The position numbers and the translations under genes are program-made. A stretch of DNA of 64,000 nucleotides from a virus, in IMG/VR virus record IMGVR_UViG_3300042556_001828, positions 1 through 64,000 of that record; one strand, given 5' to 3'. The notes below the pieces were generated by a model. That model did no database searches. It was not told where the DNA came from and was given only the letters and a program-made list of their open reading frames with translations. Of the stretch, positions 6,721 through 63,826 are shown piece by piece. Every line of letters begins with the position of its first letter. Position 1 is the first letter of the stretch.

Positions 6721-7164
6721 TCAGGCATAGTCAATGTCTAAAAACATGAAACCAAGGTTTTCCGTGATCACGACATCTTGCGCCGTGACGCTGGCGCCCA
6801 GTTGCGTGAGCGTTGCCTTTTTCAGCGTATACGTTACGGAACCGCTAGTCCCGCCGCAGCCGCCGGCGGCTGTCAGTACGACGTCCTTGGGCGTGCACAT
6901 ATCGCCGTAGTCATTGACCAGAGTCTTAAAGTTAGCAGTGCCGCCCACAATGCGACTCAGCTGCGCTTGACCCTGACGCCGATTACCGACGTAATACACG
7001 TTTGACGAACCGATTTCATACAGCGTGTTAATCTGCCGCGTCAGCGTGAAATTAACTTGCTGTACGAGCGCACCCGGGCCGCCTGCTCCGCCAAATGTCA
7101 TTGTCAGATCTTCAGCGCGAAACGAGCCATTGTGCGTTTGTTCTTTACCGAAAGGAGATGCCAT
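6721..7164 (-). CDS. Tail tube protein
   Basis: 147 aa immediately after the sheath gene. The QQVNFTLTRQINTLYEIGS...G...LSRIVG pattern is typical of myovirus tube proteins. Confidence 0.75.
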   Translation of the reverse strand: MASPFGKEQTHNGSFRAEDLTMTFGGAGGPGALVQQVNFTLTRQINTLYEIGSSNVYYVGNRRQGQAQLSRIVGGTANFKTLVNDYGDMCTPKDVVLTAAGGCGGTSGSVTYTLKKATLTQLGASVTAQDVVITENLGFMFLDIDYA

Positions 7165-7209: not shown

Positions 7210-10200
7210 TCAGACCACCAAGTGCAGCTCAATGTTGTTGAGCGGCGCCGGGACAACAAGGTCAAGAACGATTTCAATACGATCCTTCAGCAGCGGATGA
7301 ATCTGCAGCTTGCGGATACTACCGCTGATGAGCTGCGACCCAAGCTCTTCTGTGTAACCGTTACTCGACAGGAAATCGATCACGGCTGTGACTTCGTATT
7401 TCAGCCGTGCGACCATGCCCGGTTGCGCGTTGGTGCGGCCGATAAACGGACGCAGGCGGCGCAGGAACAGGTACGACATGCTATCCACGTTGCGGCGGAT
7501 CATCTCTTCCCGACGATTCAGGTCGAGGTTGTCCGTCGTCAGCGCATGCCGCGTGAACGGCGTGCCGTCCTTGTCTTCAGTCACGATCCACGTTCCCGCC
7601 TCGGCAAGCCGATTAAGCTGCGTTTCGTTGAAGTACTTGTACGACCGGCTGTAGTCGTCAAAACCGGCGACTTCCACGTTCGTCAGCGGCTGGTGGGGCA
7701 CAACACCCGACACCAAACCAGCCAGCGCGGCCGACAGGTAATAGCCGGGCTGAACTGTGCCAGCCTCGCCAACCTGATCGGGCCACACTGCGCACACGCG
7801 ACGATTCGACAGCGAACCAGCCTGTTGCACAATGTCGTCAACGACTTCGTTGCGAGTACGGTTGTGATAGATCTCAACGCGCTGCGGCACGGTCACGGCG
7901 ACGTCGCCGCCCGAGTACAACAGCAGTGTCGATTCCGAAACAACCGCGTCTACAACGTATTCTTCGTATTGCTCTTCACCGAAACCGTCAACAGTGTAGT
8001 TATACCGAACGACGTCGCCCGGACGCACGTCGTTGGTGATGAAATAACCGTTGCCCGACGTGACCGTAAGCCGCGTGTACTGCGTGTTGGTCGCATTCGG
8101 ATCATCCGACAATGTCGCCAGCACGGGGTCGACTACTTCTTCGCCAAGCACGCCTGCGATCAGCGCGCCCTGACCAGCAACCTTCGCTACCGGGTGCGCC
8201 TTCACGGCGAAGAACCCAGCCTTCCAGTTGTTGGCGATCTCGTTCGACTCGCCGCCGATGTGCGCCGCCCACAGGTTCTGCACCCTGCGGTCGAACGTCA
8301 TCGGGACAAGGTTGTACATGTCGTCGCGACCCTTGATGCGCTCAAGCACTTGCGCCCATTTGGCGAGGTCCGGTCCGAGCGAGCGGCCTTCCTCGTCAAA
8401 CAGTTCGGGATCGGCAACCGCGGTGTACTTCACAACTGTACCATTGCTGTTAGAGAGCGCCTTGTACACGCCCCATTTCAGCGGGTTATCGGGGTCAAGC
8501 TGGCCCTTGATCTGGTCGAGGTTAGCCACGTCGCTGATCGAGTTGACCTCGTCGGCCAGCTCAGCCAGCCACTCGCGGTACTCGACGTACACCTTGCCAG
8601 CCATGACGTTCAGCGGCTGCTCAGCGCCGGCGCTTGTCCACTCAGGGTGGTAAGCGACGATGCCTTCTTGCACGCAGATCTGGGTATCCTCGTACCAGAA
8701 GTTCGTCATCGGCGCGAAGCCAATGCGGTTCTTCGAGATCTGGATATCGTCCTTGATGAACAGCTTGAGGTCCATGTCCTCACCGCTGATCAACTGGCAG
8801 GTTGCCGTAGCTGTTACCGACCCGCCGCCGGCGGGCGGCGCCGCAATCGTAATAGTCGGGGCAACGGTGTAACCGGCGCCACGATTTGTTACGGTGATGC
8901 CAACAACCTTACCGGCGTTGTCGCCAGTACCGAGCACAGCCGTGCCAGTAGCTGTCGCAGCGCCAACAACACCTTCACCCGGAGCCGAGAACGTTACCGC
9001 GGGCACAGTGCCGTATCCGCCGCCGACATTCGTGATGCTGATCGGGCCCACCTTGTCGACCGGCACGTTGTCCTGCGTCAGCAGTGCAACCGGCAGGTCG
9101 TCGCGGAGGATAAGCTTGCGCACCGGGCCAGCCTGACTGGAATTCACGGTGATGTACCACTTGTCGCCCTTGCGCAGACCGGGCACAGCGTAATCGTCTT
9201 CTTGACCGTCGGTGAACGACTTAAACTTCACCTTCACGCCGTTCGTGCCGATGTTTACGCTGACCGCGTTGCCACCGACGCCGTCGCCAGCCACTTCAGT
9301 CGGGCCGGAGAAATCGAGGCCCTTGACGGTGCGCACGGTGATCTCGGGGAGATCAGCCCACACGCCGCCCTTGGTGCACTCGATGACGTAAGTGTCGTTC
9401 TTGGCACCAGCGTAGGCACCCAGAATATCAAGGTCGCCCATCACGCCGTTCACGGACTCACCAGTCGCGTTAACGCCGTCGGCGTCCGACACCGCTTTGA
9501 CCTTTTCGTAGGTCTGCTTAACGTCAAACTTCCACTTCTGGCCGACCACGAACTGGTCGAGGTTGACTGTCGTGAAACGTACCGACAGGCCGCGGGTGCC
9601 GATAAAGGTCACGCCATCAGCATCGTCGAAATCATTCGGCTGAATTTCAGCCACGTCGTCGGTGCCACTGGCAGACGTGACGCGCAGACGCGCGGCAGCG
9701 CAACCAGCCACCGAACTCTTAACAACTTCGACAACGTACTCTTCCTCGACGTAACCGGCGGCAAGGCCGTCATAATCGTTGGCGCCTTCGTCCTCAGCAT
9801 CCAGCACGGTCACTGCCACGCTGTTGTCAACGCCATCAATTTGCGAAACTGTAACGTCAACGCCGTTAACGCTTAAGGCTGTATAACTGTCTTGGTTGTT
9901 TACGTCAGCCGTCGCCGGCAGAATGCGCGACGGCACGAGGTCGCTGGCAAAGCCAGTGACGTACGTGCTAAGCACAGTCTCTTCGCAGTCGTTGTCGGCG
10001 CTTACGCTCCGAAGCTGAACGACGTCGCCGAGCTGTACGTCACGATCAAAAAACACACCGGATCGCGGGTAGGCCGCGCCGTTCGACTTGAACGACAGCG
10101 TGCTGGACTGAATCCAGTTCATCTTGCCCGGGACGGCAGTGATAGTTGTATCACTCTCGCCGAGATTGTGCACGTAATATTGCAGCATGGCGTCGTCGAT

Positions 10201-15542: not shown

Positions 15543-16112
15543 TCAGTCGATAGTGGCAGCAGTGCCGGCGGGCAGATAAACGCTCCAGAACGAAAGTGTC
15601 TGGACGCCGTTATGGTTATTCGACGCGCCGCTGGAAACAACACCGCAGACCGCGTTGACGTACTGAACAGCGCTTTGGTTCGTCAGCACGCCGCCCGTGG
15701 AGGCAACGCTAGTCGAAGTACCGGCTGTGAGCAGGTCGCCGGGGTTATAAGTCTGCGAGGTGTCGAATTCAGTCGAAGCAATCTCGTAACCGCCGGTGGC
15801 AACAAGACCCGACAGCTTGCCCGAAGGCGAAACGGCCTGATGCATGAACTTGCCGCCAGCTGTCGTGCCGGGGTTGCTGACGTCGGCATCGCCGGCGCCG
15901 TTCAGCAGGAAGATCGCCATGTGCGAACCGCTAACACCGGGAAGGAATACTTCCTTGCCGGCAGCCAGTTCAAGATGCACAACGCGACCGCGCGGAACAT
16001 CGAACGACACAGAACTCGACAGCTTGGCCGAGTAGTCAAGGGACGCCATATCGAACCAGCCCTTTTTAACGTCAAGGCCGTGTTCGAACATCAGATCGGG
16101 AGCGTAAGCCAT
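15543..16112 (-). CDS. Putative capsid decoration/cement protein
   Basis: 189 aa, beta-rich (YNPGDLLTA...VCGVVS), immediately upstream of the MCP, with a GGAGGT SD. Confidence 0.55.
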   Translation of the reverse strand: MAYAPDLMFEHGLDVKKGWFDMASLDYSAKLSSSVSFDVPRGRVVHLELAAGKEVFLPGVSGSHMAIFLLNGAGDADVSNPGTTAGGKFMHQAVSPSGKLSGLVATGGYEIASTEFDTSQTYNPGDLLTAGTSTSVASTGGVLTNQSAVQYVNAVCGVVSSGASNNHNGVQTLSFWSVYLPAGTAATID

Positions 16113-19505: not shown

Positions 19506-20906
19506 TTACGACAGGAGATCTTGTTCTGTTTGACGATTACGTAGTAGCGACGAATCGCGGTCAGCGCGCAGCTTGTCCATTTCGAGCAGCTGCTTTACGT
19601 CAAAGTCGCCCATTTCGCCGGCCTGCAGGCGCTTGCGCATCATGGCCTGCATAACAGCTGGAGAATCACCAAGACTGGGCGCCGTGTCAGAGATCTCGTT
19701 GTACGCCATCGCCACATCGTGCGGGTCGTAACCGGAGATCACGGGGTCGTTCAGCATCAAGTCATGAATAGTACCTTGCGATCTGATATCGCGCAGCGCC
19801 AGCTCGTGCTCGGGGTCGGTAAGTTTGCCGTACTGATCTTTTACAACATCTTTGTTTGTTTGCGGCGCGTCAAACATAAGTCCAGACAAACCTGATGGTT
19901 TTTGCGGTGCGCCAGCCATCCGTTTAGCCACGTTAACAGCCGGCGCTTTGAAAAAATCTTTTAAAGTCATTGTCGGTTCCGGCGCTGGTGCATGCGGCGG
20001 TCTGGGTGCGGCTTCTTTCAGCGTCAGGGGCGCTTCGACCGGGCTGTACAGGATCGACCCTGTAAGAAACTCTGGTACTTCTTTCTTAGTCGGCGCCGAA
20101 GCTGTTTTGATATTATTAGCCGCTTTTTGAGCCGTGTTGTAGTCTTCTACAGCGTTTAACACGTTCTCGACAAGCTGGCACGGGACTGGGTTGCCAATAT
20201 ACATTTCTCGCGTGGCCGCTTGCTTGGTCACATGCGGATACACGGCAGCTACTTTGTTCAACACCATTTCGCCGTCGTTGCCGAGCCGCATGCTCACTTC
20301 GCGCACAGCGTCGCCGAACGACATGTTGCCGGGAACGCGGAAATACTCGCAAAGCTTTTCCATCTCGGCGGCAGCTTTCTGGTACGCCGCGCTAGCGACT
20401 CGCCGTACTTCTTCAGCCGCCCGCTTTTCAGCGACCTTCTGGCTGTAAGCTCGCTCAACAGCAGCTTGTTCGTCACGCGGAGCTGGCACCCATGTTTTGG
20501 CCGGCAGGACTGCTTGCGCGGCAGCAGCCTTGTCCATCTCAGCCTTGCGCCGGCCAAGAAAACCCATCGGCGATACGGCATACTCGGTCGACACAACGCT
20601 GGACTGCTCAATCGCGCTGGATGTCTTTACCTGCTTGGGGTACAGCGCTTCCATGACCGCATCGGCGTTCGCCAGCTGGAAATCCGCCGACTTGTCGAAT
20701 GTGTTCTCGCCCTGTTCGCGCTGCTTGGTGGTGCGGCCAGTGTTGTAGGCGTGCACCATGAGATTGATGTGCCCGGCCGGGATATTGGCGTCAGACGCGC
20801 TCTTGATAATGGCGTCGTTCGGCGTCGAGCCCGCGTTGACAAGGCTTGCGGCGCGCTCGATAGCACTGATCAGTTTCTGCTCAGCTTCTTTATTTAGTGC
20901 CCGCAT
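19506..20906 (-). CDS. Putative internal head protein
   Basis: 466 aa, helical, with repeated VKTSS, DKAAA, TKQAA, IKTAS and LKEAA. Confidence 0.65.
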   Translation of the reverse strand: MRALNKEAEQKLISAIERAASLVNAGSTPNDAIIKSASDANIPAGHINLMVHAYNTGRTTKQREQGENTFDKSADFQLANADAVMEALYPKQVKTSSAIEQSSVVSTEYAVSPMGFLGRRKAEMDKAAAAQAVLPAKTWVPAPRDEQAAVERAYSQKVAEKRAAEEVRRVASAAYQKAAAEMEKLCEYFRVPGNMSFGDAVREVSMRLGNDGEMVLNKVAAVYPHVTKQAATREMYIGNPVPCQLVENVLNAVEDYNTAQKAANNIKTASAPTKKEVPEFLTGSILYSPVEAPLTLKEAAPRPPHAPAPEPTMTLKDFFKAPAVNVAKRMAGAPQKPSGLSGLMFDAPQTNKDVVKDQYGKLTDPEHELALRDIRSQGTIHDLMLNDPVISGYDPHDVAMAYNEISDTAPSLGDSPAVMQAMMRKRLQAGEMGDFDVKQLLEMDKLRADRDSSLLRNRQTEQDLLS

Positions 20907-26148: not shown

Positions 26149-28023
26149 TCAGGGCTTCCACCCACTTGTCGTTCCGGTCACGCCAAAGTTTTCGCCTTGT
26201 GCCAGCGCCGGAACATAACTGCTACCGGCGGTATTGCTCGTTAAACCGCGGTGTACGCTGTTCAGCAGGCCTTTTTCTTGGTACGACCCGAGCATGCGGG
26301 TCATCCAGTCAGGATCGTTGGAGATGTTCGACATGCCGCGTACCATTTCGGGCTGAAACGGCGGCGGCTCTCTGTGCGCTTGAATATTTGTAATGCCGTG
26401 CTGGCCCAAGGTTTTAACAACGTTTTTTGTGATTGGCGTGCCGACGGAATAATGCAGCGCGGGCTGTTCCAGATAGTGCCCAGAAAGCGTACTCGGCGCG
26501 CCGGCTACGCTCCCGTCGCGCGGCGTCCAGTTTCGCTCCAACATCGAATACGGCACGATATCGTCAGGGGAGTAGTCGCCGTGCTCGTCCGTCATGCGCA
26601 CGTGGTTAATCAAGCCGCGCGAAAGCAACTCAATGTTTCTGCGGTGGGCTGTAATACCGCTATTTTGCATCACCTGCCGCATCGCTTGGACAAAATAGCG
26701 GCGGCCTTCACCCACGCCTTTATGGCGGACAATTTCAGCTGGGTTCGGCATACCCTCCGAAATTGTGTCACCAGCTTCGATCTCGTCACCCTTTTTAACC
26801 GTAACGCCGCGGTCCGTTGGGACATAATGGTCTTGACCGTTAATTTGCACATAAAAGCCGCCCTGTGGCGCAGGACGCACTTCTTGGACATGCCCATCTG
26901 CCTGAGCGTGTGTTGCCCCGCCGGGAAACTTCTTCGGCACCTGTACAAGCGCGTTGAGCGCTTTAAAACCAGAAATCCCGCCTGCGCCACCGACGCCGCC
27001 AGAGTGCTTGGAGCTAATCTGACTTTGTGTGACAGGCTCTGAAAGCGCCTGCGCGGCTGCAATACCCACATAGTCTCCGACAGGCGGCAGATGGCCTTTT
27101 TCGCGATAGCCGACGTCATTTGCATAGACACCGCCGTCTTCTGGGCCGCCGACAATTGGGCTGCGCACTAAGATATCTTTAACGCCCATCTCTTTGATGT
27201 CGCGCATGATTTTGGGCGTCAGCACAGTATTGCGCTTGTACGGCCCTACGGGTCGCGACAGCATTGCGCCCTCGTTGTCGGGGTCGTCTATGTCCGTGGG
27301 AAAACCGCGCTCGTGGGCGTTGGCTAGGCGCTCTTGGTCTTGCTCGTCTTGGTCCGTGACAAGCAGTCTGTGCGCCATCTGCGTAAGCTGCTTGCCGTAG
27401 AACCCGGCGTCAGCTGTGGCGGTCTTCAGGTCAATTACACCCTTGCGGGTGCCGAACGCGCCGGCAAAGTACTCCACGGGCGTTAAGCCTTGGGCGTATC
27501 CGCGCATAACAGGAATTGGAATAGGCTCGCCGCGGTGGTCGAGATACTGCATGTCGGCGCCAAGGATCGAGTTCAGCTGGAACTTGTTGCCCACGCCGGA
27601 TCCAGCAATCTGGTGCGCTAACGGATTATCGTGCCCGTGGGCCTCGTTATACACATCATCCACAAGCTGCCGCTGCGCTTCCGACGCCAGCTTGAGTATT
27701 TTCGCATTGCGCTGCTCGTCGTTGAGGCCCCTATCCGCCAGAATCTGCCGCAACTGCTGTTTTACTTTCAGCTGCGTGTGCTGCGCCGCCAAACTCGGCC
27801 GCACGTCTTTCAGGCCGAACGATAAGCCGTTTGTTGTGTACGCGGAATCAAGCGCCACGTCATGAAGCTTTTTCATGACTTCGCGGTATTTTTCCGGGTA
27901 TTTCTTGGCTAATTCTGTCGCCAGCGCGCCCGTGTTTTTCTTGTTCAAAACGCGCGTATAGTCCCGCATGTCTTCCGGCAGCGCGTCATTAACCAGCAAC
28001 TGACCTAGCGTTGTTTTCAACAT
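26149..28023 (-). CDS. rpoC: DNA-directed RNA polymerase beta' subunit, C-terminal half
   Basis: TTLGQ, the bridge helix GLTPVEYFAGAFGTRKGVIDLKTATADAGF and the trigger loop GIAAAQALSEPVTQSQISSKHSGG all align with bacterial RpoC motifs. Confidence 0.9.
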   Translation of the reverse strand: MLKTTLGQLLVNDALPEDMRDYTRVLNKKNTGALATELAKKYPEKYREVMKKLHDVALDSAYTTNGLSFGLKDVRPSLAAQHTQLKVKQQLRQILADRGLNDEQRNAKILKLASEAQRQLVDDVYNEAHGHDNPLAHQIAGSGVGNKFQLNSILGADMQYLDHRGEPIPIPVMRGYAQGLTPVEYFAGAFGTRKGVIDLKTATADAGFYGKQLTQMAHRLLVTDQDEQDQERLANAHERGFPTDIDDPDNEGAMLSRPVGPYKRNTVLTPKIMRDIKEMGVKDILVRSPIVGGPEDGGVYANDVGYREKGHLPPVGDYVGIAAAQALSEPVTQSQISSKHSGGVGGAGGISGFKALNALVQVPKKFPGGATHAQADGHVQEVRPAPQGGFYVQINGQDHYVPTDRGVTVKKGDEIEAGDTISEGMPNPAEIVRHKGVGEGRRYFVQAMRQVMQNSGITAHRRNIELLSRGLINHVRMTDEHGDYSPDDIVPYSMLERNWTPRDGSVAGAPSTLSGHYLEQPALHYSVGTPITKNVVKTLGQHGITNIQAHREPPPFQPEMVRGMSNISNDPDWMTRMLGSYQEKGLLNSVHRGLTSNTAGSSYVPALAQGENFGVTGTTSGWKP

Positions 28024-42384: not shown

Positions 42385-42648
42385 TTACCGATTAAACATG
42401 AATATGATGTCGAGCATAAAGCGCAGGAGCACCGCCGCCCACGCGAGTACGCCGCTGATAGCTAAAAAAAGCACAAACCCGCTCGACAGCACAACGGGGG
42501 CTAATTTATGCACCGGAATATTTTTGAGCACCCGCCACGCCTTGACGTAGTCCAGCGCGGAGAGCGGCTCAGGCTGCGGCACCGGGGTTGGTGTCGGCTT
42601 CGGCTTCGGCCAAATCTTGTTGCGCAACGTGTCGAACACATTCGGCAT
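42385..42648 (-). CDS. Small membrane protein
   Basis: PKPKPTPTPVP linker and a C-terminal TM segment. Confidence 0.5.
   Translation of the reverse strand: MPNVFDTLRNKIWPKPKPTPTPVPQPEPLSALDYVKAWRVLKNIPVHKLAPVVLSSGFVLFLAISGVLAWAAVLLRFMLDIIFMFNR
42451..42511 (-). terminator. Terminator-like element, third copy of hairpin-T7-AGCTATCAGCG
   Basis: GCATAAA..CCCG..CGGG-TTTGTGC-TTTTTTT-AGCTATCAGCGGC, matching the elements at 61130 and 61979. Confidence 0.55.
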
Positions 42649-44045: not shown

Positions 44046-44062
44046 GGTTTTCTCCGTGTGTG

Positions 44063-44134
44063 CTGCCTGACTAGGATTTGAACCTAGAACCTAGCGGTTA
44101 ACAGCCGCGCGCTCTACCGTTGAGCTATCAGGCA
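44063..44134 (-). tRNA. trnN: tRNA-Asn(GTT)
   Basis: TGCCTGA/TCAGGCA acceptor stem, GCTC/GAGC D stem, CT-GTT-AA anticodon loop and CTAGG-TTCAAAT-CCTAG T arm. No encoded CCA. Confidence 0.95.
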
Positions 44135-56788: not shown

Positions 56789-57631
56789 TTACTGCACGGC
56801 ATCGAGGATAGGCGTCTGGCCCTCTGTGGCCCGTGCGCGTTGGGCTCGTTCGTACTGCTCGATCTGTGATTCTACCCAATCGGCGTATAAACTCACACGG
56901 GTATGGGCCGACTCGTCTGTGTACGTCCCGTTGGGCTTGCCGTCGACAGCCATAAGAAACGAGTGGATTCCTGCGAGTTTGTTCTCGATGAATAAGCCGC
57001 CGCCAGAATCCCCCGGGGTAATTAAGAACTCCAGCGCTGTTTTGTTATCTTTGCTCGGGTCGCACACTAACACAGAGCGCTCTAGGCTTGAAATCTTGTT
57101 ACTTCCAGCCCTGCGCTTGCCGTCTTGCTCGGTCATGCCTGTATGAAAAGTCCCGAAAAAGCCAAACCCAGCCAGCGTAACAGGCTTGCCCAGCTCATCG
57201 GTGTCGGTGTTTAGCTCTGGGTAAAAGTCCAACCCTAGGTCTTTCTCGGAGTAGCCCAGCGCGATGTCGTAATAGCCGTTTTTGCCGTGATCAAACAGCG
57301 GGTGCGAGATCGTATGCACAAGCGGGTATTCGACGGGCTTTTCTTCGTCGCCCAAGATCGTGGGCTTTTCGACGCCCTCCAGCACATGCGCTGCGGTGAG
57401 AACCCAGTGCGGCCTGATCAAGACAGCCGACGCGTACCAGTGCACCACAGAATCAGGCGTGGGCTTCTCTAGGCCCTGCGCCCGAATTCGCTTCACAAAC
57501 GGAAACTTCTTGCCGAACGCGACGTACTTGCTGTCGGGCGTGTCAGGATCCCGTGTGCCGGCAAGAGTTGCTGCGTCAGACAGCACTAAAACAAACCACA
57601 GGAGGAAGATGAACCATTGGCGTGCGTCCAT
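56789..57631 (-). CDS. Secreted trypsin-like serine protease
   Basis: Signal peptide, LTAAH, DIAL and GDSGG. Confidence 0.9.
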   Translation of the reverse strand: MDARQWFIFLLWFVLVLSDAATLAGTRDPDTPDSKYVAFGKKFPFVKRIRAQGLEKPTPDSVVHWYASAVLIRPHWVLTAAHVLEGVEKPTILGDEEKPVEYPLVHTISHPLFDHGKNGYYDIALGYSEKDLGLDFYPELNTDTDELGKPVTLAGFGFFGTFHTGMTEQDGKRRAGSNKISSLERSVLVCDPSKDNKTALEFLITPGDSGGGLFIENKLAGIHSFLMAVDGKPNGTYTDESAHTRVSLYADWVESQIEQYERAQRARATEGQTPILDAVQ

Positions 57632-57674: not shown

Positions 57675-59081
57675 TTAGCGAATACCCAACTGCTTTTGCG
57701 CGTTAATTACAGCTGATTCTTGTCCAAGCTGTTGCTGCAGCCGACCTTCAGCAGCAGTTGGGGCTGGCGCTGGCGTATTGGGCTCCAAACCCTGCGGGCT
57801 ATTACCCTGTACTCGCGCGGCCTCTAACGATCCGGGTGTTTCACCACGCGCAAAAGCTTCCCGTAGCCGTGTATTCTCGCGATAACCCGGAGAATTTGTT
57901 GCGCCGCGTTGAATACCAGCGTGGCCACTATGAATGCGACCGCCAAGCCCGGCATCTACCATATTGGCATCGGGATCGCTGTAGTCTTCACCCAAAAATT
58001 TTAAGTGCGCGCCCGGAACTGCTTTTGCGCGCTCAAGCTCTTTTGCGTAACTTGTTTCTGGTTTTTGTTTGCCCTTGTACATGCTCTTCAGCCAGTCCTG
58101 CGCCTGCCCCATCGTGCCCGGCCGGAAGTGCTCCAGCGCGCCACCAGCCAGACCACCAGCGGCCCCACCCCCCAAAGCGCCACGCAGCGCGGCCCCAAAC
58201 CGCCCACGTCGCTGCCGACCCACCACGTTACCCTCGTCATCATAGATATCTTCATGGCCCGGCGCGATAAGCCCGTGCAGGCCACCCAGCGCAGCACCAC
58301 CCAGAGCGCCAGCGCCAGCAGCCGGCATGACTTTCTGCAATCCAGCCGGAATGTTCTTGGCAAAATCGCCGATATTAAACGCAGCAACCTTGGCGCCAAA
58401 GTTACGCAGACTGGCAGACTTAGCTTCTTCTTTCTTTTCTTCCTTCTTGGGCGGAAGCGGTGTTTTCTTACCAGTGAAAGATAAGCTACCGGGCGTGCCA
58501 GTGCGGAAAGAAAGCCGGCTATCGGTCGGTTGGCGCGCAGCTACCTTGGTATCGTCTTCAGCGGGCTTTTTCTTCTTACCCATCAAGCCCTTGGCCAGCG
58601 CAGCGCCAGCAATACCGCCACCCAGTAAACCAGTGTTCGCCCGCTCAGCCGCCAACTCCTCTGGCCGATCCATAATCATTCTGTTCACGTCGTCGCGCAG
58701 AAACCGCGCGTCCGGCGACGGGCCGGTTAACGTGTTTGCACCCGTCAGCTGATCAATCTTGTCGCTGAAATACTCGCGGCGCCGTTCGGCTTCGCCTACT
58801 TCACCAGCATCGCGCGAGCCCATTAACCCGTAACCAGCGCCCGCACCAGCGCCAATCAGGCCGCCGACTCCAGCGCCGTGCAGGGCACCACTCAGTCGCT
58901 TACCTTTGCCGCCCATGATCGCGCCGCCCAGACCACCCGCCGCAGCGCCAATGCCACCGCCCGCTAAACCGTGCGCGAGCATAGCGTTGAGAGCGCTATT
59001 AGATTGCTTTTCAAACGCACACATGGCCGCCTGATACAGCTGTCCGGCGCCAGAACCATTGTTGTTATTTACGTAACGCAT
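57675..59081 (-). CDS. Glycine-zipper putative virion cargo protein
   Basis: Repeated GAxxGGLxG hairpins separated by EKQSN, TKVAA, AKSAS and AKVAA. Confidence 0.7.
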   Translation of the reverse strand: MRYVNNNNGSGAGQLYQAAMCAFEKQSNSALNAMLAHGLAGGGIGAAAGGLGGAIMGGKGKRLSGALHGAGVGGLIGAGAGAGYGLMGSRDAGEVGEAERRREYFSDKIDQLTGANTLTGPSPDARFLRDDVNRMIMDRPEELAAERANTGLLGGGIAGAALAKGLMGKKKKPAEDDTKVAARQPTDSRLSFRTGTPGSLSFTGKKTPLPPKKEEKKEEAKSASLRNFGAKVAAFNIGDFAKNIPAGLQKVMPAAGAGALGGAALGGLHGLIAPGHEDIYDDEGNVVGRQRRGRFGAALRGALGGGAAGGLAGGALEHFRPGTMGQAQDWLKSMYKGKQKPETSYAKELERAKAVPGAHLKFLGEDYSDPDANMVDAGLGGRIHSGHAGIQRGATNSPGYRENTRLREAFARGETPGSLEAARVQGNSPQGLEPNTPAPAPTAAEGRLQQQLGQESAVINAQKQLGIR

Positions 59082-59133: not shown

Positions 59134-61065
59134 CTAATTCTTTCGGGCTACAGCTAACTCTGCCGCTTTACTTACAAATTCTTCTGCGCTAGCGAACTTA
59201 TGGTCGTCAGAAAGCAATGGATAAGCATGGGCCAGAGTCTTGGGCTTAAGTAACCCATACTCTTTCATGAGCTTGGCGGTGTTTAAGATATTTTTACGCT
59301 TGTTAGCTGCGTGCATATAAGCGGCAGCTACGCCAGCACCCGTCCCAGCTAGGCCCACACCAGCGCCGTCCATGCCGCCCAGATACCCCAAGCCGGCCGT
59401 GCCCAGTAAACCAAGGGCACCAGCACCAGCAGCGTACATCTTGGGATCCGGCGCCATATCGCTGAGGTTATATTTGTCTTGGCCCTGTGAATTTCTCACG
59501 ATGTGGCGCAGGGATGACTGAAAGCCATCGCGATTCAGGCCCCGAGCGCGCAATGTGTTGTCATCGGGCCGGACAAGGGCTTTGAGCTGGCCATATTGCT
59601 GCACAGCGTGTTGAATCTGGTCAGGGCCTGCAAAACTGGAATAGTTATCTAAACCCAAGGGGCGGGCAGCTTTGTATAGCTGGCTGGCGGCGCCGTATTT
59701 TTGCTGCATCGCTTTAATCGCGGCTGGGCTTAGTTGCGCGCCAATTTGAAACGCGTCGGCTTTTTCGCCTTTTTCGTTTACAAAATCAGCTACTTGCCTC
59801 GCATGCAAACCGTCATCAAATTCTTCTTCTCGTTCATTTTGTCGATAAATTTTTGTGCCGTCAGGCAGCGTGGCGTAATGCATGCGATCTTTTGGATATT
59901 GTCGGCCCTTACGCGAATTTGGTCCGCCGCCAAACATATAAGCTGCGCCAAGCCCGCCAGCAGTAAGTAAACCGCCACCCGCAATTGCCGCGCCGAGCGT
60001 TGGATCAAATGCTGTTTTGGCCAGCATCAGCGCCGAGCACTTGCAGTTCCACTTGCGCAGGGACTTGTTAATACGCGAGTCTGGGTCTTTGGCTGTCGCG
60101 GCGCCAGTATTTACGCTCTTCATGCCGCACATACGCGAGCAGAAAGAGTTCTGTCGCTTAGCCCGGTCGCCGCTGGGATTAGACTCAGTGACAGGCGCTT
60201 TGAGATTCCCGCCGTGTTCGCGCTCGTAGCTCTTGCGGCCCTTCTCGTTCAGGCCGCCTTCGTCGTTCTTACCAGCACTGCGTTGCCATGCGGGAGAACT
60301 GGCAGCCGTTTTGGAACTATCTGGTGAGTTCTTTGTGCCAAACGCCGCATTGCCGTTGATGTTGCCAGACGCAGACAAAGCACCAAACGAGTTGATCGGG
60401 TTGGCAGAAGGCGAGTTCATGCCTGCGCCCTGTGCTTGTGCCGGCTGGGCAGCTTGGGGCTGTTGCGGCTGCGCTGGTTGGGCCGGCTGCTGCATACCCA
60501 TCGGCATAGGGGTGGTATTAACGGGCATGGCGTATCGCTTGATTCCGACGTTTTGCGGCATTTTTGCGGCCATTCGGGCCTGCTGCTCAGCTTTTTCGTT
60601 CTCAATCGCCTGCATAATCGGCTGCGAAAGAACGACGGCAAGCTTCTTCAAAAGTGAATTAACATCACTGTTAACAGTTTCACCCGCCAATTCCTCGCTA
60701 CTCTGGTTGACTTCGTCCTCATTCCGCGTCTGGATCGGCGAAGCCTTATCTTCCCCCGCGTTCTCTGCCGTAACGTGTTCATCGCCGGCAGCTACGGGCT
60801 TGTCTGAGTGCGGAATATCTACCTTGAGCAGCCCAGAGTTCGCTTTTTTAACACATTCGTTGTAAATCGTTAGCCCAATAGTGTTTACGGCAAAAGCCTT
60901 GTTAATGTTATCCATAGCTGCGGCCTTTTCCTTGTCATCGGGTTTCTTTTTATGCGCATACAGGGGCAAGTCTTTCTGCCCCGGGTATTCTTTTGCCCAA
61001 CGTTTCGCGATATCTGGATGCTGCGACCAGAGGAAACGCCGCTGCTTCTCGGACTTAAATGGCAT
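59134..61065 (-). CDS. Mosaic putative virion cargo protein
   Basis: MPFKSEKQRRFLW module, AWQRSAGKN..GGLN..SFCSRM..KWNC module and glycine zippers, with K-x-A motifs between the modules. Confidence 0.72.
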   Translation of the reverse strand: MPFKSEKQRRFLWSQHPDIAKRWAKEYPGQKDLPLYAHKKKPDDKEKAAAMDNINKAFAVNTIGLTIYNECVKKANSGLLKVDIPHSDKPVAAGDEHVTAENAGEDKASPIQTRNEDEVNQSSEELAGETVNSDVNSLLKKLAVVLSQPIMQAIENEKAEQQARMAAKMPQNVGIKRYAMPVNTTPMPMGMQQPAQPAQPQQPQAAQPAQAQGAGMNSPSANPINSFGALSASGNINGNAAFGTKNSPDSSKTAASSPAWQRSAGKNDEGGLNEKGRKSYEREHGGNLKAPVTESNPSGDRAKRQNSFCSRMCGMKSVNTGAATAKDPDSRINKSLRKWNCKCSALMLAKTAFDPTLGAAIAGGGLLTAGGLGAAYMFGGGPNSRKGRQYPKDRMHYATLPDGTKIYRQNEREEEFDDGLHARQVADFVNEKGEKADAFQIGAQLSPAAIKAMQQKYGAASQLYKAARPLGLDNYSSFAGPDQIQHAVQQYGQLKALVRPDDNTLRARGLNRDGFQSSLRHIVRNSQGQDKYNLSDMAPDPKMYAAGAGALGLLGTAGLGYLGGMDGAGVGLAGTGAGVAAAYMHAANKRKNILNTAKLMKEYGLLKPKTLAHAYPLLSDDHKFASAEEFVSKAAELAVARKN

Positions 61066-61129
61066 AGCTCTGATATTAGCTCCCAAGCTGGATAGAAGTA
61101 TTTTGGCACAAGGGGTGGGAAATGCAAAG

Positions 61130-61174
61130 CGCTGATAGCTAAAAAAAAGCGCAGAGGCCCTTGTGGGCGTGCGC
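61130..61174 (-). terminator. Intrinsic terminator with a conserved downstream AGCTATCAGCG
   Basis: GCGCA-C-GCCC-ACAA-GGGC-CTC-TGCGC-T8. Confidence 0.85.
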
Positions 61175-61184
61175 TGTTTATTAC

Positions 61185-61622
61185 TTACAGTCCGATCAAG
61201 AAGCCCTGCGCGAACGAGATGGCAGGATCGTGCGAGATCTGGTCGGCGTCTGTTAAGACAGCGACCTGAAGCTGCACCCCAAATTGCTTCAGGAAGCTTT
61301 TGCTGAAAGACGAACCCGGTGTGTACGCAGGCGTCGCATTCGCAAGGGCTTCAGCAAGCAACCCAGCGCTATAGGCCAAGACCATCCGCTGCCGTGCTTG
61401 CTTGGTATAGTCAATCACGGGCGCTTCAGCCGGCACAGTCACTTCCACAGGCGCAGCAGGAGCAGGAGTCTCGATCTCCAGCTTCTCGTAGTCTGGCGGC
61501 ACTACAAGCTCAACAGCAGCCTGCGCAGCATTCTCGGCAATCAGACTTCGGCACACCGTCAGGCCGTAGAAGACCGCGCCGACAACAACACCAACAATGA
61601 ACATCTTTACGAAATCACGCAT
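61185..61622 (-). CDS. Membrane-anchored hypothetical protein
   Basis: N-terminal TM; the only gene between a promoter element and a terminator. Confidence 0.7.
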   Translation of the reverse strand: MRDFVKMFIVGVVVGAVFYGLTVCRSLIAENAAQAAVELVVPPDYEKLEIETPAPAAPVEVTVPAEAPVIDYTKQARQRMVLAYSAGLLAEALANATPAYTPGSSFSKSFLKQFGVQLQVAVLTDADQISHDPAISFAQGFLIGL

Positions 61623-61669
61623 GGCATAGATCTCCGCACCTGTGGGTTAGCTCAGCGGTTACGCAACAA

Positions 61670-61722
61670 CTGAAAGCTATAGGTGGTTCACTATATATGC
61701 CCGGATTTCGACTTTTATTTAG
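61670..61722 (-). promoter_or_regulatory. Candidate phage promoter, copy 1
   Basis: CTAAATA-N14-GGCATAT-N3-GTG-N6-CTATAGCTTTCAG, with the same architecture as 62431-62482. Confidence 0.65.
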
Positions 61723-61725
61723 ATA

Positions 61726-61803
61726 TCAAGTCCCCCACGCATCAGTCGCGTCGTCTTCTTCAATCTCGCCGAACATGTGCATGAATACATCCTCTATGTC
61801 CAT
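61726..61803 (-). CDS. 25-aa acidic micropeptide
   Basis: MDIEDVFMHMFGEIEEDDATDAWGT preceded by GGGAGGT. Confidence 0.45.
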   Translation of the reverse strand: MDIEDVFMHMFGEIEEDDATDAWGT

Positions 61804-61978
61804 GACGCACCTCCCGGGATATTGATATCTAAGCCCACGACTATTTTACTTGAACAGGGTGCCGGAGCTGCCAGACCAACAACGGTTTGCCGTAACTAGT
61901 TGTGGCTGTTGGGTTTACGTCACACGGCTAATAGTTGCGTGCCGTAAGTCCATTATTCACAACACTTTACGACGATTG

Positions 61979-62026
61979 GCCGCTGATAGCTAAAAAAAAG
62001 CACAGAGGCCCGTGAGGGCATGTGCT
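61979..62026 (-). terminator. Intrinsic terminator with a conserved downstream AGCTATCAGCG
   Basis: GCACA-T-GCCC-TCAC-GGGC-CTC-TGTGC-T8, with a compensatory stem change relative to the copy at 61130. Confidence 0.85.
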
Positions 62027-62443
62027 TTGGTGTCCCATGTTCTACGGTGGCGGACAGACACCTTTAGATGCGGGCTTTCGAGACGCCACGCCGCATCTGC
62101 CAGACTTTCACTGGCTCCCATTTGTGTCGGTGGGTTACCCAAATGCGCAGCGGTTTGATTTTACCGGCCTGCGTGCGCGCAACAGCCGGGGTTACGGGAC
62201 AAGTTTTACGCCATTACCGATTGGGCGAAAGGCTGCCGATTAACGCACGGCAGCACCACGTCCAAGAGTTTCACTGGACCCCATTTAATCGGTGGGTTTC
62301 CATCAAGGCTTTTTTTATACCCGCCTGAGCTTGTCCGACTGTTCCAGTGGTCGGGCACCTTATCCCCGTAGTTAACCGTACGGGTCGGTGTGTCAGCACA
62401 GGCAACACTTTTGGAAAAGCGCTGGCTGTGCTGACAGCTATAG
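61992..62443 (-). ncRNA. Candidate ~450-nt structured ncRNA with a duplicated two-hairpin module
   Basis: Lies between the promoter element and a terminator, has no credible ORF, and forms a near-continuous series of hairpins. Confidence 0.65.
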
Positions 62444-62482
62444 TTCTACACCTAATATGCCGGCTTTTTGCCCGGTATTTAG
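62431..62482 (-). promoter_or_regulatory. Candidate phage promoter, copy 2
   Basis: CTAAATA-N14-GGCATAT-N3-GTG-N5-CTATAGCTGTCAG. Confidence 0.65.
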
Positions 62483-63223: not shown

Positions 63224-63826
63224 TTAATCCCAAAGGGCTTGGAAATACTTACCAAAGAGTACAAAACCACGAGTCTTACGCTCCTGCCACGTGACATGAC
63301 CAGCTTTGTCATACCCGCCGGCAAAGAATCCATCATCAGCGTCTGGGTCCATCTGCTCGAACGCCCAGATCATCTCATTTATGACCCAGTCCCACCGCGG
63401 CGCCCCGTTGTCGTCGGGGCAGGCGGTGTTGATCTGCTCTTGGGTCAACGCCGGCGCTGACGTGCTGCGCAGATGCTCAGGCACGTCTTCGTCATCCACC
63501 ATTGGATACCCATGCTTCTTCTCTTTGAGGAGCTTGAGCATGGGCAGGATGATATGCGAAAGCGTGTCATCCATGCTCCACACGTCGTAGTCATGGATCT
63601 TGACCTGAATCTTGCGCTCGACCCGGTTATCTATCCAGTTCTCGATATCCATGAGTTTGTCGTAGATCCAGCTGTCCTTGATCTTTTCGACAAGTGCGTC
63701 GTAAGCGTCTACGTCAAACGTATCCGCGGCGACACCGCGGCCAAAGCCGCGTGCCCACAAGATCAGGTCCTTGTACCACGTTCCCGGGCGGAACCAGTGG
63801 CTATAGGGCCCAATGTAAACTTTCAT
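63224..63826 (-). CDS. Conserved phage hypothetical protein
   Basis: YDVWSMD.TL..IILPMLK.LKEKKHG.P.VD.EDVP...LFGKYFQALWD, with a GAGGT SD. Confidence 0.8.
   Translation of the reverse strand: MKVYIGPYSHWFRPGTWYKDLILWARGFGRGVAADTFDVDAYDALVEKIKDSWIYDKLMDIENWIDNRVERKIQVKIHDYDVWSMDDTLSHIILPMLKLLKEKKHGYPMVDDEDVPEHLRSTSAPALTQEQINTACPDDNGAPRWDWVINEMIWAFEQMDPDADDGFFAGGYDKAGHVTWQERKTRGFVLFGKYFQALWD

Follow-up and report, generated by a model that had tools for sequence, protein, structure and literature searches.

Where a short sequence recurs at the start and at the end of neighbouring transcription units, one may ask whether it punctuates transcription, acts in the RNA or serves as a point where the units themselves are exchanged. 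This question is raised by the viral record IMGVR_UViG_3300042556_001828 of IMG/VR, of which positions 1 to 64,000 were analysed (this whole stretch of 64,000 nucleotides (nt) is called the window below). Two putative units lie there in tandem on the minus strand, unit 1 running from promoter P1 to terminator T2 and unit 2 from promoter P2 to terminator T1, and the 10-mer TAGCTNTCAG is found downstream of each promoter and directly behind each terminator. An initial annotation of the sequence had described this architecture as cassette-like. The explanation that we favour, with a probability of about 60%, is that promoter and terminator punctuation repeats in a hypervariable cluster of units drive modular shuffling, as in morons or in the promoter early stem-loop (PeSL) motifs of T4-type phages.

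Each unit would consist of a promoter proper to the clade, a cargo (a small open reading frame (ORF) or a structured RNA) and an intrinsic terminator whose T-tract runs directly into a conserved box, AGCTATCAG(CG). The 18-20 nt of T-tract and box, and the promoter of about 30 nt, would be repeated at every boundary. Because these boundary sequences recur, homologous recombination or copy-choice could insert, delete or exchange whole units. The anatomy of the units, the conservation of the box throughout the clade, its link to strand and hairpin, and the gain and loss of units at these sequences are direct observations, described below.

The two units of the window and their promoters

All five copies of TAGCTNTCAG in the window are on the minus strand, against 0.26 expected; none of 100 shuffles reached five, and the largest count in a shuffle was two. 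Four of these copies stand where the initial annotation had placed them, one at each end of the two units (Table 1). The entire record of 73,372 b still holds just five copies, a reversed control pattern has none, and the further paired copies looked for across the record were not found. The composite start motif described for both units could be verified: CTAAATA-N14-GGCATAT followed by GTG-N5/6-CTA and the 10-mer occurs twice, and CTAAATA-N12-16-GGCATAT gives two matches in the window, against 0.00 expected. The sequence downstream of P1 reads TAG-GTG-N5-CTA and then TAGCTGTCAG, that downstream of P2 ATA-GTG-N6-CTA and then TAGCTTTCAG.

Both units end, as had been claimed, with a bulged hairpin and a T-tract running into the box (fold z-scores of -2.4 for T1 and -2.8 for T2). 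Hairpin, T-tract, box and a following CG form a 46-nt direct repeat with 89% identity (61130-61175 and 61981-62026). Judged by this likeness, T1 and T2 are paralogous terminators, and the duplicated 46-nt module flanks unit 2. Covariation of the two stems, also proposed initially, was found for one pair only, which is fully compensated (G-C to A-U, on both sides).

The cargoes differ completely, in agreement with the first description: a 145-amino acid (aa) ORF with a hydrophobic helix in unit 2, and in unit 1 a stretch of about 440 nt (61993-62430) without convincing ORF, which folds at -177.2 kcal/mol (z-score -4.3) and which we regard as a candidate structured RNA. Within the latter, a module recurs in similar form at a spacing of about 163 nt (62102-62139 and 62265-62301). 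It matched no Rfam family, at the gathering threshold or at E≤5, apart from a single chance-level miRNA match, and no nucleotide homologue was present in any of the relatives fetched. The leader hairpin of unit 1 has a folding energy of -30.1 kcal/mol and a z-score of -6.1, with none of 200 shuffles folding equally well; the corresponding hairpin after P2 is insignificant (z-score +0.46). No match to the 145-aa protein was found in Pfam or PHROG; a homologue occupies the equivalent slot in one relative (L115).

The fifth 10-mer lies inside a gene. It was considered as an internal terminator and rejected as a coding look-alike: its hairpin has a z-score of -0.84, and the nucleotide motif is lost in the orthologue of G005, which is the most distant of those whose nucleotides could be read. 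At the protein level, all five orthologues in complete relatives retain the motif. Look-alikes of T-tract and box in coding DNA correspond to a hydrophobic F(F/L)LAIS sequence, seen in a small membrane protein and N-terminally in a trypsin-like protease (G001; L079, 11540-11640).

Table 1. Features of the two units and of the fifth 10-mer copy, in window coordinates
Feature	Position	Strand	Remark
Promoter P1, CTAAATA-N14-GGCATAT	62455..62482	-	tAgTGA-like conserved block after it, down to ~62445
Promoter-side 10-mer TAGCTGTCAG	62431..62440	-	TAGCT begins 14 nt past GGCATAT
Unit 1, 5' leader hairpin	62391..62436	-	5' arm begins within the 10-mer
Unit 1 cargo, structured non-coding stretch of ~440 nt (candidate RNA)	61993..62430	-	From ORF list and folding
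Terminator hairpin T2, bulged (predicted)	61998..62027	-	T8 tract 61992-61999; -18.4 kcal/mol
Terminator-side box TAGCTATCAGCG after T2	61981..61992	-	10-mer TAGCTATCAG at 61983-61992
Possible 25-codon acidic ORF with GGGAGG ribosome-binding site	61726..61803	-	Between T2 box and P2; read from the sequence
Promoter P2, CTAAATA-N14-GGCATAT	61695..61722	-	260 nt beyond T2 box
Promoter-side 10-mer TAGCTTTCAG	61670..61679	-	TAGCT begins 15 nt past GGCATAT
Unit 2 cargo, 145-aa ORF	61185..61622	-	N-terminal hydrophobic helix
Terminator hairpin T1, bulged (predicted)	61148..61175	-	T8 tract 61141-61148; -16.4 kcal/mol
Terminator-side box TAGCTATCAGCG after T1	61130..61141	-	10-mer TAGCTATCAG at 61132-61141; 44 nt 5' of the 650-aa DUF6321 gene
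Fifth 10-mer copy	42455..42464	-	Inside 87-aa ORF 42385-42648; encodes ..VLFLAISG.. in a membrane helix

The promoters were compared in 17 oriented 10-kb loci, the window's and those of 16 relatives. Fifty promoters of the CTAAATA class are found there, all on the gene strand, with the consensus aGCTAAATA..ccaAAatCcgGgCATAT.tAgTGA. This suggests a clade-specific promoter of the form (A)GCTAAATA-N14-GGCATAT-nTAGTGA. Written as CTAAAT-N17-CATATn and set against TTGACA-N17-TATAAT, the consensus keeps the 17-bp spacing of sigma-70 promoters and not their -35 hexamer. A promoter for a single-subunit polymerase of T7 or SP6 type, brought to mind by the letters ..CTATAG.., was rejected: the spacing varies between N5 and N6, and the polymerase of the phage is multisubunit. 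The promoters of one complete relative, G003, are concentrated, six of the nine in its 204,621 b lying within 5.6 kb (102.7-108.3 kb). The window's own record holds a third promoter beyond the window, CTAAATT-N14-GGCATAT at 70361-70388 on the minus strand, with neither TAGCT nor the 10-mer 3' of it; because the sequences downstream are alike, it is probably orthologous to the G003 promoter at 117895-117922.

The initial annotation had taken the promoter-side 10-mer as a cassette boundary, and this part of the proposal fails. TAGCTNTCAG follows only two of the 50 promoters, both of them in the window (one promoter of G001 has a version with one mismatch), and the cargo replacement seen in a metagenomic strain (see below) begins 77 nt downstream of the copy. 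Moreover, the box that precedes units in relatives belongs to the upstream terminator, which counts against the promoter-side 10-mer as a boundary. The pentamer TAGCT is more widespread, with 12 of the 50 promoters (8 of 33 lineages), and among the offsets examined it occurs exclusively 14-16 nt after GGCATAT, and can therefore be viewed as an optional, position-fixed promoter-proximal element. The promoter-side 10-mer is thus, to judge by these comparisons, an element distinct from the terminator box and no breakpoint. In the window's promoters TAGCT, placed at the foot of the leader hairpin, would simply happen to extend to ..NTCAG in this phage. The N14 spacers of P1 and P2 are mostly different, yet the two promoters have CTATAGCTNTCAG in common at 12 of 13 positions, so that this part appears to be under constraint in this phage.

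A conserved box behind the terminators of the clade

Terminators were sought by a scan blind to the box, which listed hairpins followed by at least six T on both strands of the 17 loci. On the gene strand, 53 distinct sites were obtained, and the exact hexamer AGCTAT comes next in 33 of them (35 within one mismatch). Among control T-runs, AGCTAT follows 5 of 36 without hairpin on the gene strand; the opposite-strand counts are 0 of 12 and 0 of 95. Conversely, 33 of the 38 exact AGCTAT copies after gene-strand runs of at least six T sit directly behind a hairpin. The hexamer is usually extended to AGCTATCAGCG, conservation peaking at AGCTAT and next at CAG, and the box is constant behind hairpins whose sequences are mutually unrelated.

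The exact 17-mer T6-AGCTATCAGCG occurs at 51 sites in the viral collection. A lenient hairpin test is passed by 37 of them (26 of 35 distinct contexts); several of the others are near-misses or the coding look-alike. Of five further records with the box, four encode the RNA polymerase, with 37-80% identity to that of the window, and the fifth is a fragment that is 43% complete. Box copies are strand-biased (seven forward and none reverse in G013, for example), and two loci, L129 and L126, have boxes and no CTAAATA promoters. The exact 10-mer is present in 3-7 copies per 200-kb genome and is clustered in this region in four of five relatives; most relatives have a terminator with box 5' of their homologue of the DUF6321 gene. 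The possibility of a host-wide motif was considered and rejected: the 17-mer has at least 120 matches in bacterial genomes, by our estimate roughly the number to be expected from chance (about 70 in 596 Gb), and they are taxonomically scattered. Among the matches listed, 53 of 120 pass the lenient hairpin test, and five carrier genomes (three Planctomycetota, one Latescibacterota and one Bythopirellula) have a single copy each.

These terminators resemble ordinary intrinsic ones in having a GC-rich stem of variable sequence and then 6-9 T on the gene strand, with T1 and T2 placed at the cargo ends; they differ in the conserved element of 9-11 nt that abuts the T-tract in 33 of 53 cases. A box of this kind is not known to us from any terminator class described, and the only paper that a full-text search for the motif strings brought up was an unrelated one on cyanobacteria.

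Could the likeness between the two ends of the units be accidental, and the terminator copies the product of one local duplication? The 46-nt repeat would suit this, as would the coding look-alike and the promoter-side copies, whose letter at the N position is not that of the box and which are without the trailing CG. However, in a deep clade the box stands behind dozens of terminators whose hairpins are unrelated, the copy number in the window far exceeds expectation, and the position of TAGCT after GGCATAT is fixed. Duplication and chance are largely refuted for the terminator side, and as a full account we consider them highly unlikely.

T-tract and box would rather form a transcription punctuation element, common to phages whose polymerases are 37-80% identical and of which some use other promoters. 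The box may be a downstream termination element, the start of the next unit's signal, or a factor-binding site serving both. An RNA-level role appears least likely for it, since terminated RNA would be without the box. In such a scheme the 10-mer would be a processing or end-pairing site in primary or read-through transcripts, the palindromic UAGCUA allowing the 5' and 3' copies to pair. TAGCT(N)TCAG is indeed common to both contexts in this phage, and in the minimum-energy fold of the unit 1 transcript, extended past the box, the 5' AUAGCU pairs with the 3' AGCUAU. But the box sits beyond the T-tract, the pairing amounts to just 6 bp and follows automatically from the palindrome, and the full 10-mer on the promoter side is limited to this phage; we regard this scheme as improbable.

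A start signal deserves more attention, though we find it doubtful. T-tract and TAGCTATCAG would then be the promoter or initiator of the next unit, for the clade's own or a second polymerase; the 10-mers would always mark starts, and the upstream terminator would merely share its T-tract with the next start signal. The four intergenic copies of the window indeed lie 0-180 nt 5' of same-strand features (the candidate RNA, the 145-aa ORF, the 25-codon ORF and the 650-aa gene), and neither the 25-codon ORF (61726-61803) nor the 650-aa gene has a CTAAATA promoter upstream. In L129 and L126, boxes lie 40-140 nt 5' of ORFs that have no other recognisable promoter; in other lineages a TAnAAT-like hexamer stands 4-10 nt past the box. 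The fixed offsets of TAGCT suit a start-site element, the box co-occurs with the phage polymerase, and it stays with the downstream unit in the two inserts that split hairpin from box (see below). Yet 3-7 exact copies per 200-kb genome are too scarce for a general promoter class, and in relatives 15 of 45 terminator boxes have a complete CTAAATA promoter within the next 12 nt, beside which the box would be superfluous. Lineages also vary in how far the next promoter-like element lies from the box, and, as stated above, exact AGCTAT copies after T-runs nearly all sit directly behind a hairpin (33 of 38).

A related and equally tentative proposal combines both functions: T-tract and AGCTATCAG would be a sequence-specific stop-and-restart signal for the clade's beta/beta' polymerase or a factor bound to it. 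The signal would be read in downstream DNA at transcript release and again at the next start, its core marking unit ends, after the T-tract, as well as unit starts, where TAGCT lies 14-16 nt after GGCATAT. If so, the repetition of the signal would itself render the early region recombinogenic.

Some further observations concern the box sequence. Its TAGCTA core is palindromic, and T-tract plus AGCT, in reverse complement, resembles the promoter's AGCTAAATA. Of ten reverse-oriented boxes, nine overlap the -35 region of a promoter, as CGCTGATAGCTAAATA; in L076 (reverse-complemented), for example, CGCTGATAGCTAAATA is found where two genes, each of about 350 aa and preceded by a 480-nt leader, have their stop codons (6728-6764 and 8336-8372). 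The hexamers past the box in other lineages belong to L010, L011, L024, L034, L038, L050, L054 and L071; they read CATAAT, TAGAAT, TATAAT or TATACT, and the T-tract would occupy the place of a -35 element.

Gain, loss and exchange of units

The region between the homologues of a 200-aa gene (63224-63826 in the window) and of the 650-aa DUF6321 gene (59134-61086) is syntenic. In relatives it contains a same-strand cluster of short promoter-cargo-terminator units, with highly variable cargo, most of it ORFs for which the other loci have no counterpart. The position differs between relatives for cargo families F30 and F31 and also for the 115-aa gene of the window.

At one syntenic site, G003 has a lone hairpin-T7-TAGCTATCAGCG. 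G004 and G002 have this module and an additional unit (promoter, ORF, hairpin, T-tract and box), flanked by the box on both sides, and the extra ORFs of the two genomes are unrelated. Since homology to G003 covers both the left hairpin and the right flank, the difference falls exactly in T-tract and box. Across relatives, this slot is empty in L093 and L098; it holds one ORF and a terminator in L100 and L105, a 93-aa unit in L096, a 138-aa unit in L095, a 3-kb block of three units in L092 and further layouts in L094 and L097. Inserts of 337 nt, with two promoters as bounds, and of 838 nt were found in a second slot. Junctions of present and absent units fall in the T-tract, the box or the promoter.

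Natural populations gave two further observations. A metagenome run (X15) contains a strain that diverges from the window by a few percent; it has kept P1, the leader as far as 62354 and, from 62031 onwards, the terminator, and on its contigs the 322 nt in between (62032-62353) are swapped for 355 other letters. This replacement could be an exchange of cargo inside retained regulatory ends, or the outcome of fast divergence. In a contig of another run (X17; depth 16.1), only 20-22 nt of T-tract and box match the window. One of its loose ends is identical, over 30 of 30 letters, to the hairpin of a box in G001 (at 15572); the other agrees equally well, 30 of 30, with the flank of a box-like site (at 19588), 4,016 nt away in the same genome. 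The contig represents, in a natural population, the joining of two sites through one box, a junction of the deletion type; no circle junction was seen among the assembled contigs. The same contig, when placed on the window, gives an apparent joint from 61149 to 61977; we rejected this as a deletion in the window, for it has a 22-nt side and derives from a G001-like phage. None of the contigs that match the window deletes either of its units.

The presence and absence breakpoints that the cassette proposal called for are thus found in relatives, at T-tract plus AGCTATCAGCG or at a promoter, and in the X17 contig that joins two sites. The proposal holds at the terminator end, where whole units are present or absent and cargo is swapped, and not at the promoter-side 10-mer.

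An integron-like, site-specific mechanism finds no such support. The box would have to be an attC-like core, cut and rejoined by a phage recombinase; its presence on both flanks of units, and the existence of empty sites with a single box, would agree with this. However, no match to the tyrosine recombinase domain (PF00589) or the serine recombinase domain (PF00239) was found in five records, the window's own and those of four relatives that are 97-100% complete (PF00589 matched in 14 of 14 control genomes). Junctions lie variously in T-tract, box or promoter, and the box has strictly the orientation of transcription and is linked to terminators. Repeats like those of attC, inverted and imperfect with a conserved geometry, are absent, the hairpins being ordinary GC-rich stems of varied size. 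We consider dedicated site-specific recombination very improbable.

Several points weigh against shuffling driven by punctuation repeats. The activity of the promoters and terminators, and the positions of the transcript ends, are predicted from sequence, and the recombination is presumed to be homology-driven. AGCTAT is missing behind 18 of the 53 terminators (20 of 53 are without an exact copy), and the box is therefore dispensable for the existence of a hairpin with T-tract. In the window itself, neither of the two terminator boxes has a promoter within the next 12 nt, and no promoter of the CTAAATA class follows the box of T1. At the left junction of two inserts the T-tract alone is retained, the box remaining with the downstream unit, which fits microhomology or a start-signal role of the box equally well. 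The X17 junction is one assembled contig with just 30 letters visible per side, and of its two parent sites the one at 19588 is a look-alike in coding DNA (FFFFLAIS, where the gene for the trypsin-like protease begins). The relatives fetched are all too distant to reveal whether units 1 and 2 themselves were gained or lost. Finally, the sharing of CTATAGCTNTCAG between the otherwise diverged P1 and P2 is left as a lineage-specific extension of TAGCT.

The phage, comparable systems and significance

The window is part of a lake-water phage with a genome of roughly 205 kb; its record is rated 36% complete, and the DNA was detected in lake-water metagenomes. All long ORFs of the window are on the minus strand. 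Five relatives of 198-205 kb, 97-100% complete according to CheckV, have 41-78% amino-acid identity in the genes flanking the units. A search of the phage collection by nucleotide with the 1.8-kb region gave zero matches. The phage encodes a multisubunit RNA polymerase: an ORF of 1814 aa (28912-34356, minus strand) carries domain 6 of beta fused to the N-terminal domains of beta', and a separate C-terminal beta' domain is encoded by an ORF of 624 aa (26149-28023, minus strand). The nearest isolates for this polymerase are Salmonella phage Arash and Vibrio phages D69, D148 and D181, with about 32% identity. Virions of Arash are described as containing beta, beta' and a sigma factor (PMC10585845). 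No Sigma70_r2 domain was found in the window's own record (G000), in G003 or in G004.

Units 1 and 2 are followed on their 3' side by the gene for the DUF6321-domain protein, which has long Gly/Ala/Gln-rich stretches (59134-61086), then by genes for a 468-aa Gly-rich protein without family (57675-59081) and a trypsin-like protease (56789-57631), all on the minus strand. A tRNA-Asn (GTT) at 44062-44134, minus strand, is the sole Rfam or ARAGORN match in the window.

The closest parallel is with PeSLs. These are composite motifs of about 100 bp in T4-type phages, made of a sigma-70-type promoter and a stem-loop; they are concentrated in hyperplastic regions beside orphan genes, phages differ by motif-ORF-motif as against a single motif, and mini-circles are reported (Arbiol et al. 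2010, PMC2839356; Comeau et al. 2014, PMC4122927). The likeness is extensive: short terminator/promoter motifs, composite at 15 of 45 boxes in relatives and at neither box of the window, are repeated in hyperplastic regions 5' of small genes of unknown function, relatives differ here too by motif-ORF-motif versus a single motif (G003 versus G004 and G002, and two slots), each unit has its own promoter and terminator, and the mechanism proposed is homologous recombination between motifs. The present phage, in contrast, is not T4-like, encodes its own beta/beta' polymerase and has promoters away from the sigma-70 consensus. In the window, terminator and next promoter are not adjacent, 260 nt separating T2 from P2. 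Conservation is highest in the 11-nt box after the T-tract, for which the PeSL descriptions consulted state no counterpart. The present system is not a PeSL member in the strict sense; by analogy, it would work in the same way, with a sequence-fixed box in addition.

Morons are autonomous promoter-gene-terminator units between conserved genes, present in some genomes and absent from relatives. They are usually solitary, with unrelated signals of host type and often with a deviant base composition. Those of lambdoid and other phages were reportedly treated by Juhala et al. and by Hendrix et al. in 2000. Both window units likewise appear to have a promoter 5' and a factor-independent terminator 3', and presence or absence at a shared junction is seen for units of relatives. 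However, the units described here are in tandem, with one promoter class and one terminator box, and their GC content (0.54) is close to the 0.56 of the genome.

Integron cassettes, inserted by attC x attI recombination, are promoterless and stand in arrays, all in one orientation, with a repeated site as the boundary of each exchangeable unit. Co-oriented, swappable units bounded by a repeated site are also seen here, whereas no integrase was found in the records searched, every unit is equipped with a promoter and the junctions vary in position. The boundary, moreover, is a terminator with hairpins varying in size and sequence, not a recombination hairpin of conserved geometry.

If modular shuffling through punctuation repeats is correct, motif-based exchange of this kind extends from T4-type phages to uncultivated, polymerase-encoding lake phages of about 160-225 kb, and would help to explain the uptake of many orphan genes into early regions. 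The box also provides a practical metagenome marker for unit boundaries and for members of the clade. A fixed box of 11 nt beside freely changing hairpins, in phages with polymerases only 37-80% identical, points to a termination or re-initiation step of the phage multisubunit polymerase that is read from sequence.

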